Part shown: piece by piece, positions 25,845-29,612 of the stretch
Position numbering within the stretch: position 1 is the first letter of the stretch
Layout of the letters: each line of letters begins with the position of its first letter
Origin: Escherichia coli
GTDB lineage: Bacteria > Pseudomonadota > Gammaproteobacteria > Enterobacterales > Enterobacteriaceae
DNA length: 64,000 nucleotides
NCBI RefSeq assembly: GCF_011045215.1
Contig: NZ_CP049201.1
Strand: one strand, 5' to 3'
Notes under the pieces: generated by a model
Databases searched by the model: none
What the model was told of the DNA's origin: nothing
The model's input: only the letters and a program-made list of their open reading frames with translations
Program-made: the position numbers and the translations under genes

Positions 25845-27146
25845 TCAAGCAGAGGTAAATTGCGGGATGTTATGCCATAACGGCCAGCTAAACGAGAAGC
25901 GGGCACCACCCAGTTCGCTGGTGTCACAATTAACCGTACCGCCCATTGCCAGTGCTATAGAGTGGACAATTGCCAGCCCCAGCCCGCAGCCGCCGGTTGA
26001 GCGATCCCGGCTGGGATCGAGGCGAACAAAAGGTTCAAAGATATGTTCGCGGTTTTCTGGGGCAATCCCTGGGCCATCATCCTCAACAATTAATGTCGCT
26101 CTATTCCCCGACAGTAGCAGGCTGGTTTCAACCGTTGAATGGCAGTAGCGCAGGGCGTTATTGAGCAAATTATCCAGCACACGCTCCATTAAGCGCATAT
26201 CCAACGCCGCATAATGGCCTTGCGCGAGCGTTTTTATCCGTACCGTTTTATCGGGCGTTACTGCCTGAATGTCTGCCAGATGCGTTGACAGCCACAACGG
26301 CAGGTCTGGTTCGCTAAGATGAAGCTCGTTTTGTGGGCGATCGAGTCGGGCATAAGTCAGCAGCTCTTCAATTAAAGCTTCAAGTTGACTGATATCACGA
26401 TTCAACGCCTGGGATTCGGCGGCGCTCAGGTTATCGCTCATCTCCAGTCGATAACGCAGGCGCACTAACGGTGTTCGCAGTTCGTGTGCAATACCGTCAA
26501 TAAGCTGTTTTTTGCTGGCTATCAAGGCGTTGATATTGTCCGCCATCTGGTTAAATGCGACGCCAAGGCGTTCAAAGCTCGAACCCTCATCAAAGTGGAT
26601 ACGTTCATTGAGATGCCCATCGCCAAATCGTTGCGCCGCAGCTTCCAGTTTTAACATATCCTGCCAGTGCGGACGCATCCAGATAAACACCGGAAAGGCG
26701 AGGGAAATGGCAATAAAAGCGATCAGGGCGATATCCAGCAATCGCATCTGATGGAGGTAATAAAGATAAGGAACAGGACCAACTGCCAGCACGTAGTGGC
26801 TGCGCGGGATACGTTGCAAAAACGTGTACTGATCGTCCAGGGCGACAATTTCGCCGCCACGCAGTCGGTGCATGGAAATATCATCAAGATGGTATTTACT
26901 CAGTGGCTCGACACGCAGATCGAAAGAGAGATTTAAATCCATCTCTTTCAGCGTCTTACCCCAGTCGTGTGGGGGGATCTCACGCAATTCGCTGCGCATC
27001 AGATACAGCGAACTGTTCATCAAATCATCCAGCGACTGTTTGCCCGCGCGTTCGGCGGTAAATTTGTACACCAGCCCAACCAGCAGAGACATCACAAGGA
27101 AGCAGACAAACAATAACAGGTAAAACTGGATAAACAATTTTTTCAT
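25845..27146 (-). CDS. rstB: RstB sensor histidine kinase
   Basis: ORF 25845-27161; start taken at MKKLFIQFYLLLFVCFLV... giving 433 aa; HAMP, H-box (IAHELRTPL) and ATPase motifs present. Confidence 0.9.
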   Translation of the reverse strand: MKKLFIQFYLLLFVCFLVMSLLVGLVYKFTAERAGKQSLDDLMNSSLYLMRSELREIPPHDWGKTLKEMDLNLSFDLRVEPLSKYHLDDISMHRLRGGEIVALDDQYTFLQRIPRSHYVLAVGPVPYLYYLHQMRLLDIALIAFIAISLAFPVFIWMRPHWQDMLKLEAAAQRFGDGHLNERIHFDEGSSFERLGVAFNQMADNINALIASKKQLIDGIAHELRTPLVRLRYRLEMSDNLSAAESQALNRDISQLEALIEELLTYARLDRPQNELHLSEPDLPLWLSTHLADIQAVTPDKTVRIKTLAQGHYAALDMRLMERVLDNLLNNALRYCHSTVETSLLLSGNRATLIVEDDGPGIAPENREHIFEPFVRLDPSRDRSTGGCGLGLAIVHSIALAMGGTVNCDTSELGGARFSFSWPLWHNIPQFTSA

Positions 27147-28895
27147 TGGCATCGCCCGCAACAGAATACTATTCGTATTAATTCACGACTGTGGAGCAAT
27201 GTAAACCGCCAACTGGATAAGGCCTTGTTTGGAAGATAATGTCCGGAACAGACGGATGTATCCCCGGCGTATTCATATTCAGTAAATTCAATTTTCCACC
27301 GGGGCTTGTTTATTATGCTAAGGTTTAATTTAACGTGACGCTTTGTTGTTCTTTAGTCTCTCTATCCTTAAGAAGACGGGCTGATATTACACCGGACATC
27401 ATTGAACCATTCACATTAAGCGCTGTTCTTGCCATATCAACGATCGGCTCTATGGCAATAAAAATACCCACTAATGCGACAGGGAAATTAAGTGTTGAAA
27501 GGACAATCAGCGCCGCGAATGTCCCACCACCACCTACGCCTGCTACCCCTATTGAGCCAAGCGCGATGGCAGGTAAAAGAGTAGCGAGGAATTGCAATGA
27601 GAAGGGATCGATACCCATTGTTGGAGCAATTATCGCCACCATCACGGCAGGATAAATCCCAGCGCAGCCATTTTGTCCCATGTTGGAACCAAAAGACGCT
27701 GCAATATTAGCAATCGTATTTGGAACCCCCAATTTTTCCAATGCAGAAATAGCCAGAGGAATTGAAGCCGCACTACTGCGAGAAACAAACGCAAAGGTAA
27801 GTACTTGCCAGACGGTCTTGTAATAGTTAACGGGGTTTTTACCTATTAACAGCAAAATGCCCGAGTGAACAATAAACATCACAAAAACGGCCAGATAACA
27901 GGCGACGATGAACCCGAGCAAATTGGTAAACTGTGAAAGCTGATACGTTGAGAAGACTTTCGCCATTAGTGCCATTACCCCATAAGGCGTCAGCGCAATG
28001 ACAATACGGACCATTTTCATTACCCATATTTGAATCGCGTTGATCCCCGCGCTCAATTTTTCGCCCTCTGCTGGTGCATCTTTCTTTACTTTTAACAGCG
28101 CAATACCAGCAAGAATTGTAAAGATGACGATGCCAATAACCGAAACACTTCTTGCCCCGGTCAGATCAAGGAAGAGGTTGGTTGGGATCAATGACGTAAT
28201 GAGTCGCGGTAAAGATACCGCAGCTGTTTTCGAGACGTCATCGCTGGTTAAAGAGGATTGCATATGACCAAAGGCGCTGGCATCAAGGCCAATTGCACTG
28301 GCAATAGCCAGGCCAACTAAACCTGCAATCATGACTAAACACAACATACAGGCAACAATAGTTAAAGACATCTTGCCAATACCAGCGCTATTTTCGAGCT
28401 TATTAATCGCTGAAAGAATAGAAATGAATATGAGTGGAACGGCAACAAGTTTTAATAAATTAACATAACCGTTACCAGCAATATTATACCATTCGATAAC
28501 GGTTTCACTGTTTGTCTCAGGAATGAAATGCAGGGAGATACCAATGATAGCCCCCAGGAAAATCGCGATAAAAACACTTTTGGAAAGGGATTCGCTCTTT
28601 TGATCCGTTTTGAAAATCCCCCATGAGCAGATCAAAAAAAGCACAATATATGTGAAAGTTGTAACCATTTTTTAAGCCTCTTGCCTCATTCAGCACCTGA
28701 AATGCCGGAAAGAGTTTGTTGTAAAAAATCTGCGCCATAAGACGCAGGGACGAGGCGATTATAGAGAAATTTTTTCTCATATTCACATCAAATGTAGGGG
28801 GGTTGGAATTTGAATAAGCTCTTATTAATTGAATTCGTTAATTGTTCTCTTTTTCAGATGAACAAATATTAGTCATCTGATTATTTATTGTCACT
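27147..28895. other. About 1.7 kb AT-richer inserted segment separating rstA from rstB
   Basis: rstA and rstB are adjacent in K-12 as I recall; here 1.73 kb intervenes. Left boundary is placed where the RstA C-terminus departs from the expected ...PHAWE; right boundary just upstream of the rstB start. Boundaries are approximate. Confidence 0.6.
27325..28668 (-). CDS. DAACS-family (sodium:dicarboxylate symporter superfamily) transporter, TcyP/YdjN-like, putative L-cystine or amino-acid:cation symporter
   Basis: 447-aa polytopic ORF; shares the family signature FVSRSSAASIPL and long conserved blocks (WYNIAGNGYVNLL, ASFGSNMGQNGCAGIYPA, GVGGGGTFAALIV) with my recollection of E. coli YdjN/TcyP, estimated at about 50-55 percent identity; GAGG RBS upstream; visibly AT-richer than the flanks. 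Confidence 0.8.
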   Translation of the reverse strand: MVTTFTYIVLFLICSWGIFKTDQKSESLSKSVFIAIFLGAIIGISLHFIPETNSETVIEWYNIAGNGYVNLLKLVAVPLIFISILSAINKLENSAGIGKMSLTIVACMLCLVMIAGLVGLAIASAIGLDASAFGHMQSSLTSDDVSKTAAVSLPRLITSLIPTNLFLDLTGARSVSVIGIVIFTILAGIALLKVKKDAPAEGEKLSAGINAIQIWVMKMVRIVIALTPYGVMALMAKVFSTYQLSQFTNLLGFIVACYLAVFVMFIVHSGILLLIGKNPVNYYKTVWQVLTFAFVSRSSAASIPLAISALEKLGVPNTIANIAASFGSNMGQNGCAGIYPAVMVAIIAPTMGIDPFSLQFLATLLPAIALGSIGVAGVGGGGTFAALIVLSTLNFPVALVGIFIAIEPIVDMARTALNVNGSMMSGVISARLLKDRETKEQQSVTLN

Positions 28896-29612
28896 ATCCC
28901 ATGCATGAGGCGCAAAAAGATAGCCTTTGTTACGCACGGTTTTAATGCGATAAGGTTCTGCGGCGTTATCGAGCAGTTTTTTTCTTAACCGCGAAATAGC
29001 CACGTCCACGCTACGATCCAGTCCGTCATAACTGACGCCGCGTAAATTTTTCAGCAATGCATCGCGGTCCATGATTTGCCCGGCATGGGTAGCTAATTCC
29101 CACAATAATTCGAAATCAGCTGTTGAGAGCGAGATTTCAGTGTTAGCCAGGGTGACTACGCGGTTGATAGGATCGATGGTCAACGTGCCGAAATGCAGGG
29201 CTTTGTAGGGAGTCAGAGACGTTTCCTGAAGACCTTTGGTCAGTGTGGCTTGCTCATTCTGACGCAAATGCAAACGTAAACGCGCTAGCAAAACAGCAGG
29301 GGGCGTCGTTTTGAGAATATAGTCGCAGGCACCCATTTCCAGTGCCAGGATGTGGTTCATATCGCTATCGAGAGAGGTTAGAAGAACAATCGGTCCAGAC
29401 CACTTTGCGCGTAAATCACGACAAATGGTCATGCCGTCCTTGCCTGGTAGCATGATGTCGAGTAACACCAAATCCGGATTTTCTCGCAAAATGGTTTCTT
29501 CGGCATGGTCGCCGCGCGGCTCTACGGTAACCTGCATATCATGTTTTGCCAGGTACGCGGCAATCAGTGAACCGACTTCCGCATCATCTTCCACAAATAC
29601 GATAGTGTTCAT
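28881..29612 (-). CDS. rstA: RstA response regulator (OmpR family) with an altered C-terminal tail
   Basis: ORF 28881-29672; start taken at MNTIVFVEDDAEVGSLIAAYL...; receiver and winged-helix domains intact; ends ...GYLFAPHAWDSDNK, where I recall ...HAWE in K-12, consistent with the insertion junction lying in the last codon. Confidence 0.9.
   Translation of the reverse strand: MNTIVFVEDDAEVGSLIAAYLAKHDMQVTVEPRGDHAEETILRENPDLVLLDIMLPGKDGMTICRDLRAKWSGPIVLLTSLDSDMNHILALEMGACDYILKTTPPAVLLARLRLHLRQNEQATLTKGLQETSLTPYKALHFGTLTIDPINRVVTLANTEISLSTADFELLWELATHAGQIMDRDALLKNLRGVSYDGLDRSVDVAISRLRKKLLDNAAEPYRIKTVRNKGYLFAPHAWDSDNK

Follow-up and report, generated by a model that had tools for sequence, protein, structure and literature searches.

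An insertion between rstA and rstB was analysed in a 64,000 nucleotide (nt) stretch of DNA from Escherichia coli (contig NZ_CP049201.1 of assembly GCF_011045215.1), referred to here as the window. The chromosome is of the E. coli type and the gene order is fumC, tus, rstB, the insert, rstA, ydgC, folM and ydgI. The insert carries a single transporter gene, with 212 nt separating the rstA stop codon (28881) from the transporter ATG (28668). Within this leader are a promoter, a hairpin (H1) and a near-invariant block over the ribosome-binding site (RBS), designated H2. The initial annotation had read a TATAAT with a weak -35, a CTGCG/CGCAG stem, a run of six U, a GAGG and the ATG on the minus strand, and all of these are where it placed them. 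The features of the insert are as follows.

27147 to 28896, minus strand: foreign DNA in place of the 3 bp rstA-rstB spacer, from comparison with K-12.
28781 to 28786, minus strand: weak -35-like sequence GTGAAT, with 3 of 6 matches and a 17 nt spacer to the -10.
28758 to 28763, minus strand: -10 hexamer TATAAT of the transporter's own sigma-70 promoter, which is TATAAT, TATACT or TAGAAT in 30 of 30 distinct leaders.
28750 to 28757, minus strand: GC-rich discriminator CGCCTCGT, with the predicted +1 at G28751 or T28750 by homology with the mapped Salmonella +1.
28730 to 28747, minus strand: H1, CTGCGTC-TTAT-GGCGCAG, 7 pairs, starting at about +4/+5 of the inferred transcript.
28723 to 28729, minus strand: A (28729) then U6 (28728-28723) after H1, a terminator-like pattern in this copy.
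28715 to 28722, minus strand: A/C-rich single-stranded linker ACAACAAA, variable in length (about 10 to 27 nt) and sequence among orthologues.
28677 to 28714, minus strand: near-invariant 38 nt block H2, CTCTTTCCGGCATTTCAGGTGCTGAATGAGGCAAGAGG, a predicted hairpin in which CUCUU pairs with the RBS AAGAG.
28688 to 28706, minus strand: apical 19 nt of H2, GGCATTTCAGGTGCTGAAT, identical in 15 of 15 orthologues selected by protein.
28677 to 28682, minus strand: Shine-Dalgarno sequence AAGAGG (GAGG at 28680-28677), 8 nt upstream of the ATG (28668-28666).
27325 to 28668, minus strand: SDF-family transporter of 447 amino acids, a TcyP/YdjN paralogue and orthologue of Salmonella STM1368, from protein comparison.

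The leader was compared with the DNA upstream of 15 orthologues picked by protein only and with 19 metagenome instances, which together with the window make 30 distinct leaders. The metagenome scan was anchored on the invariant apical 19-mer. A protein-alignment scan of species-representative genomes gave 4 true orthologues among the matches listed, which were mostly TcyP paralogues, and the orthologues beyond that scan were gathered by exact-protein look-ups. One layout is common to all 30 leaders: YTATAAT, a GC-rich discriminator, H1, usually a TTT(T)A tract, an A/U-rich linker of about 10 to 27 nt, H2, 7 to 9 nt and the ATG. The -10 and the hairpin recur at equal offset throughout, confirming that both are real. 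In the window the U-run is 54 nt from the ATG and 42 nt from the GAGG. Across the leaders the H2 block takes the form CTCTTTCCGGCATTTCAGGTGCTGAATGRGGCAAGAGG; one degenerate pattern of H2 that frees its stems is TTTCYGGCNNNTCAGGTGCTGNNNNNGGYAAG.

This layout is kept although the neighbouring genes vary from genus to genus, and the gene with its leader thus moves as a unit. On sequence grounds the 212 nt region is the ancestral leader of the transporter, travelling with it as one unit, and H1 is likewise judged ancestral to this module and not an adaptation to the rstA-rstB site.

The claim of the initial annotation that the transporter has its own promoter is borne out by the comparison. A sigma-70 promoter is supported because the -10 is kept in every orthologue, even where the upstream genes are unrelated, and in plasmid copies bounded by the insertion sequence IS1, and because a transcription start site (TSS) has been mapped in Salmonella. 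There is no -35 near TTGACA at a distance of 16 to 18 nt, and a promoter consensus scan omits this TATAAT, the -35 being too weak. In alignment, the orthologues have TGGATA, TGGTCA or ATGACA at the -35 position, with a T-rich tract before it, and most have a GC-rich discriminator.

In S. Typhimurium SL1344, differential RNA sequencing (dRNA-seq) places a primary TSS at 1408824 for SL1344_1302, which is STM1368 (PMC3293720 Table S1 row P728; PMC3963941 row P518). The 5' untranslated region (UTR) there is 84 nt, and the sequence from -50 to +1, ...GCGCTCTTTATAATCCGCTGCG, is annotated 'Sigma 70 (-10)' (PMC3293720, PMC3963941). In both dRNA-seq datasets the +1 sits 8 nt past the conserved TATAAT. 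Since the homologous start lies at this distance, the window +1 is predicted at G28751 or T28750, which would give a 5' UTR of about 83 nt. The start near 28750 on which the initial annotation had staked its promoter is thus found in the Salmonella orthologue, and in the window is placed by homology. The Salmonella start has 1 read in the wild type and 11 in ppGpp0, a strain lacking guanosine tetraphosphate (ppGpp) (PMC3293720, PMC3963941), and its discriminator is 85.7% GC. The ppGpp0 reads and the GC-rich discriminator hint at negative stringent control, at counts too low to rely on.

Directly after the predicted start comes H1, the hairpin that the initial annotation had taken for an attenuator or part of a ligand-responsive leader. 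In the window its core stem pairs CTGCG (28747-28743) with CGCAG (28734-28730), and the whole has 7 pairs, 5 of them G-C, with a 4 nt loop and a predicted energy of -10.5 to -12 kcal/mol. A hairpin of 6 to 10 pairs is present in 21 of 21 sequence families, and its sequence differs in nearly every lineage. The stem begins 9 to 11 nt past the -10 in most families, which corresponds to +2 to +5 of the transcript. When the 21 families are set against dinucleotide shuffles, the native sequences form the more stable best local hairpin (mean z -1.6, Stouffer Z -7.3, Fisher p 5e-7).

An alignment of the 30 leaders with MAFFT puts the H1 clades out of register, and covariation was therefore counted on clade-level alignments. 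In 10 leaders from six genera, 6 of 9 pairs have compensated changes on both sides, 91.1% of cells pair as against 75.2% in shuffles (0 of 500 reach this; slid controls give 19-47%), and the covariation score is 0.61 as against 0.32 (again 0 of 500). Among 4 Kluyvera leaders, 2 of 9 pairs are compensated. On these comparisons H1 is evidently a selected RNA structure, the sequence of which is immaterial. Because its sequence is free to vary, H1 cannot be a ligand-binding aptamer. In one leader (L098, about 2905-2945), the 12 nt H1 loop GGCATATTTCAGG resembles the 5' half of H2, GGCATTTCAGG, either as a partial duplication of H2 or by chance.

It is possible, if on the doubtful side, that H1 and its U-tract are a true promoter-proximal intrinsic terminator or attenuator that sets expression, perhaps modulated by a factor, and which also blocks rstA read-through in this strain. 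The window copy has the pattern of an intrinsic terminator, a G+C-rich stem-loop of 7 pairs (5 G-C) followed by U6, in the right orientation, as the hairpin of the opposite strand has no T after it; most families have at least 4 U in the 8 nt after the stem. However, by the criteria of the scan tool itself only 7 of the 21 H1 families qualify, and the hairpin stays at equal offset in Salmonella, K. aerogenes, E. lignolyticus and Apirhabdus, none of which has a usable U-tract. The terminator scan alone does not go beyond chance, as the 3 sites that it finds in 26900-29300 compare with 2.8 +/- 2.0 for shuffled sequence. Nor does termination account for the tight spacing between the stem and the TSS. 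With about 4 nt from the predicted +1 to the stem there is no sequence for an antiterminator, and no conserved complementary segment that could compete with H1 is present in the 30 leaders. For these reasons, together with the 7 in 21, H1 is a poor candidate for a regulated attenuator, and the reading of the initial annotation fails for this hairpin. The trp and pyrBI attenuators and intrinsic terminators likewise have a G+C-rich stem and then a sense-strand U-run between promoter and gene, but the present leader differs from them in having neither leader peptide nor antiterminator, in its stem lying about 4 nt past the TSS, and in the several orthologues that have no U-tract.

The most likely conserved role for H1 is that of a 5'-terminal stem-loop that would protect the mRNA from 5'-end-dependent decay. 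Emory, Bouvet and Belasco reportedly described such a stabilising stem-loop at the 5' terminus of the E. coli ompA mRNA in 1992. H1 is like the ompA element in being a hairpin a few unpaired nt from the 5' end, in that structure and position matter rather than sequence, and in being followed by an A/U-rich single-stranded segment. It differs in the U-rich tail of most H1 copies, which the ompA element does not need. No more than about 4 unpaired nt separate H1 from the 5' end of the RNA, a position which for the window follows from the Salmonella homology. In Salmonella, the half-life of the STM1368 mRNA is 2.06 min, 2.3 times the transcriptome median of 0.9 min (PMC10998600), a figure consistent with a stabilising effect of H1. 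In the window, the U6 tail may in addition make H1 a leaky intrinsic terminator, acting on its own transcripts and on rstA read-through. As this copy has one of the best U-tracts of the family, the suggestion in the initial annotation that it insulates rstB from rstA read-through is plausible.

Between the U-run and the start codon lie the 'about 55 nt' that the initial annotation had passed over, and these contain H2. A conserved regulatory leader is present after all, and H2 is the most conserved element of the locus; if the leader senses anything, H2 is the likely site. A 25 nt core of H2 is identical in 15 orthologous loci and the window, which represent 12 distinct species-level leaders. 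Three further orthologues selected by protein all have the 19 nt apical core, and the most divergent of them, L096, differs in the flanks. The core was not found in 76 TcyP-type loci with 5 mismatches allowed, nor was a second similar copy found in the E. coli genomes searched. In the metagenome scan, the 19 true instances of H2 all precede the same transporter, and the other 9 are chance matches to the 19-mer.

The 38 nt of H2 have a mean pairwise identity of 0.96. The 12 nt directly upstream have 0.36, the transporter coding sequence has 0.78, 0.88 and 0.43 at codon positions 1, 2 and 3, and the best 38 nt window within the first 600 nt of the gene reaches 0.82, below H2. The motif string of H2 had no match in the literature searched. 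The initial annotation suggested a covariance-model search with Rfam, and queries of 3 kb and 136 nt on the leader gave no family at E <= 10, just eukaryotic small nucleolar RNA and microRNA noise. It also suggested folding of the leader, and the 212 nt RNA does fold better than shuffles (z = -3.2), the inferred transcript modestly so (z = -1.8).

The H2 hairpin is the minimum free energy (MFE) structure in most species. In this fold (fold A) CUCUU pairs with AAGAG, CC with GG, CAUU with AAUG and CAG with CUG, at -11.3 kcal/mol, and the RBS is paired with a predicted probability of 0.85-0.96 for AAGAG. A second fold from RNAalifold (fold B) has the pairs CUC:GRG, UUC:GAA and GGCAUU:GGUGCU; it leaves the RBS free and, at -9.5 or -8.6 kcal/mol, is 1.8-2.7 kcal/mol less stable. 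Natural variation leaves 98.6-98.9% of cells able to pair in either fold, and 8 to 9 pairs never vary. In fold A a single pair is compensated, from U-A to C-G in 2 sequences, with a covariation score that 8 of 500 shuffles reach; in fold B there is none. In Apirhabdus and L096, the two leaders that diverge most, the compensated pair accompanies a switch of the RBS from AAGAGG to AAGGAG, and the partner there is CCUUU. The freezing of even the paired positions would be understandable if almost every base took part in one or the other of two exclusive folds. H2 is predicted to be an RBS-occluding element, absent from Rfam 15 and previously undescribed.

Other candidate structures and readings were considered and rejected. 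The AUG within H2 does not open a conserved upstream open reading frame (ORF): depending on the species it leads to an in-frame extension, an out-of-frame overlap or a peptide of 2 to 7 codons, and it is AUC in L096. In the 212 nt fold the discriminator pairs with H2 positions 28-32, but this pairing is restricted to the window and Kluyvera, being absent from Salmonella, Citrobacter and others, and lies upstream of the TSS. A helix between the U-tract and an A-run in the MFE fold of the window is not conserved, because the spacers differ among orthologues. In the window only, the U6 tail of H1 (28722-28730) can pair with the A-run before the AUG (28669-28676, UUAAAAAAU), enclosing H2 in a longer MFE helix. 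As for an antisense reading, the opposite strand has no T after H1 and the sole small ORF there (MPER...) enters the variable linker. Resemblances to an RstA box or to CRP- or Cra-like operators appear confined to half-sites or are in the wrong orientation.

H2 could be a small metabolite-binding riboswitch, in which a ligand shifts the balance between the RBS-free and RBS-sequestering folds, but this is considered unlikely. Such a reading would fit the extreme conservation of a 38 nt structured block that overlaps the RBS, the two near-isoenergetic and mutually exclusive folds, and a module that works after transfer between genera with no linked regulator; having no Rfam match, it would be a new class. 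The stems, however, do not covary, the motif precedes one gene family in one bacterial order, and there is no ligand on record. Most riboswitch classes are broader and have variable stems around conserved unpaired bases, which counts against H2 being one. The preQ1-I, guanidine-III and thiM riboswitches resemble H2 in being compact (about 40 nt), highly conserved elements over an RBS with an alternative RBS-free fold, and differ in that H2 has no Rfam match, ligand or stem covariation and is confined to a single gene family in one order.

The invariance of the sequence, rather than of the pairing alone, would suit recognition of H2 by a trans-acting partner, either a core small RNA or a global RNA-binding protein, or a role as a DNA operator, downstream of the promoter, for a global transcription factor. 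H2 is indeed an imperfect palindrome (CATTTCAG-GTG-CTGAATG), and the U-rich tail after the hairpin and the A-rich linker may resemble Hfq-binding features. Against this, small-RNA seeds and CsrA sites need about 7-12 nt and not 38, most copies have no GGA motif, and E. coli genomes hold no second block like it. We know of no operator consensus that fits the everted half-sites of H2. In Salmonella the STM1368 mRNA is increased in a cspC cspE double mutant (logFC, the log fold change, 1.53; false discovery rate (FDR) 6e-5) and with proQ overexpression (logFC 0.72, FDR 0.0016) (PMC10998600 Dataset S2). The first of these favours a trans-acting factor, but the half-life does not change significantly in the cspC cspE mutant or with proQ overexpression (PMC10998600), that is, it is independent of ProQ and of CspC/E. 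Recognition in trans or as an operator is regarded as quite improbable.

An RNA thermometer that opens the RBS at host temperature is highly improbable. The helix that holds the RBS is indeed imperfect, being interrupted by a mismatch, an internal loop and a bulge, and such helices are found in fourU and ROSE elements. However, in silico the predicted RBS pairing is flat at 0.83-0.97 over 20 to 45 C, with no melting between about 30 and 42 C. In addition, H2 is nearly invariant while thermometers are usually poorly conserved in sequence, and there is no match to the Rfam thermometer families.

The reading that is preferred, with some reserve, combines a sigma-70 promoter, a 5'-terminal stabilising H1 (possibly a leaky terminator in this strain) and H2 as a translational operator with a putative effector. 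The leader would then be native to a mobile single-gene module for a TcyP-like transporter and serve as its 5' control region, with three working parts. The first would be the promoter, with a perfect -10 and a weak -35, to which the GC-rich discriminator may confer sensitivity to ppGpp. In the second, H1 near the 5' end of the RNA would protect the mRNA from decay, its U6 tail here probably adding leaky termination. In the third, the CUCUU of H2 would pair with the AAGAG of the RBS and keep translation low for an importer that is potentially harmful. Uncontrolled cystine import is harmful in enteric bacteria. The putative effector would probably shift H2 towards the less stable, RBS-free fold. 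Because there is no linked regulator and the module works across genera and on plasmids, any such effector is expected to be either a small molecule or some universal host factor.

Some of the evidence weighs against this three-part reading. The TSS of the window is carried over by homology from Salmonella, where the read counts are very low (1-11). The half-life is a single figure for the whole STM1368 mRNA, with no H1 mutant as a control. Most orthologues are U-rich after H1 (at least 4 U in 8 nt), for which a stabilising role alone gives no reason. H2 hardly varies, so that covariation can neither prove an RNA structure nor choose between the folds, and conservation at the DNA level would look alike. 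Lastly, 19 of the sequences were retrieved by the invariant 19-mer itself, and only the 15 leaders selected by protein are unbiased for its invariance.

The transporter has the SDF fold over its full length (PF00375, E = 8e-96), and its NCBIfam matches to GltP, DctA and SstT are all well under the cut-off. It is not an orthologue of the characterised TcyP, as identity to TcyP/YdjN-type proteins is 43-47%. Its true orthologues, at 57-85% identity, form a separate group in Citrobacter, Kluyvera, Klebsiella aerogenes, Pluralibacter, Trabulsiella, Shimwellia, Arsenophonus and Salmonella (STM1368). The tcyP (ydjN) gene of E. coli encodes a cystine importer controlled by CysB. It belongs to the same superfamily (Pfam SDF; context in PMC7373191), but identity is about 46% and the 76 TcyP-type loci compared have no H2 block. 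Some database sources label the orthologues 'L-cystine transporter', and a literature search found no characterised function for STM1368. The closest E. coli record annotates a product of 439 amino acids, implying a GTG start at 28644. Because all orthologues have an ATG 7-9 nt past a conserved AAGAGG, the annotated start is probably 8 codons too short and the true start would be the ATG at 28668, giving 447 amino acids.

The neighbours of the gene vary by genus. In Salmonella it lies between sufA and ydiH, in E. lignolyticus (L090 3442-3675) beside three tRNA genes and in Arsenophonus (L093 6663-7919) near a phage-type integrase; the last two settings fit island-like acquisition of a single-gene module. 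The Salmonella small RNA rydB (Rfam RF00118, 78 bits; L085 5403-5463, minus strand) is found just downstream of STM1368, before ydiH. The sufA-rydB-ydiH region of E. coli K-12 presumably has no such transporter gene.

The native position of the gene is between rstA and rstB in 7 Citrobacter and 5 Kluyvera loci. The C-terminus of RstA in Citrobacter is HAWDDEPRK or HAWDDEPQK, and the leader core is 185-209 nt past the stop codon. The window is a close parallel, with the insert (at 28881-28897) changing the K-12 ending ...HAWE to ...HAWDSDNK and the leader core 174 nt past the stop. Given the native gene order and the similarities in RstA tail and leader distance in Citrobacter, the best explanation of the E. 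coli arrangement is that DNA from a Citrobacter-like donor took the place of the rstA-rstB junction by homologous replacement. The likeness of the RstA tails points to a crossover within the 3' end of rstA. Directly past the rstA stop codon in the window is a 7-pair hairpin, CAGATGA-N11-TCATCTG (28855-28880), followed by AAAAA and with no U-tract. The Citrobacter loci have a different, G+C-rich hairpin at the equivalent place.

Among 5,426 complete E. coli genomes, the insert is present at the rstA-rstB site in 1 other. Copies of the module that are 99.3-99.5% identical are found on 4 E. coli plasmids and 12 PLSDB plasmids, flanked by IS1 or ISKpn26. The IS1-bounded copy corresponds to 28803-27147 of the window and retains the promoter and the entire leader. 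This copy (L003 7657) stops at window position 27147, 1 nt before the rstB ATG, which is the right junction on the chromosome. Either the plasmid copy was captured from a chromosome with the transporter gene between rstA and rstB, or the shared end is a notable coincidence.

The rstB gene (27146-25845) now begins 178 nt downstream of the transporter stop codon. There is no convincing terminator in 27147-27324, the sole scan match being a stem of 5 pairs with ATTATCTT behind it instead of a genuine T-run. Because of this, rstB is probably transcribed by read-through from the transporter promoter and from rstA transcription that passes H1. A promoter-like TTTACA-17 nt-ATTAAT is present about 30 nt upstream of the rstB ATG. 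The expression of rstB in this strain has probably been rewired.

The insert splits the normally coupled rstA-rstB operon and rewrites the C-terminus of RstA, and may alter two-component signalling. Beyond this strain, what is new is the near-invariant RBS element and that the whole leader is an ancestral and portable part of the gene; the kind to which it belongs, the cis-acting 5' UTR control element, is already known. H2 is more conserved than the protein downstream of it. Salmonella, Citrobacter and Klebsiella have been exceptionally well searched for regulatory RNAs, yet H2 is absent from Rfam 15. Carried through chromosomes and on plasmids between insertion sequences, and with no linked regulator, the module is a compact and testable case of horizontally portable regulation. 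It is a tentative and rather unlikely idea that H2 founds a new class of RNA switch, small and bistable and acting as a riboswitch or an equivalent sensor, gating a putative orphan importer of sulfur amino acids as a portable cassette of the Enterobacterales. If it is true that H2 senses a metabolite, this importer family would thereby have its first control of this kind in enteric bacteria.

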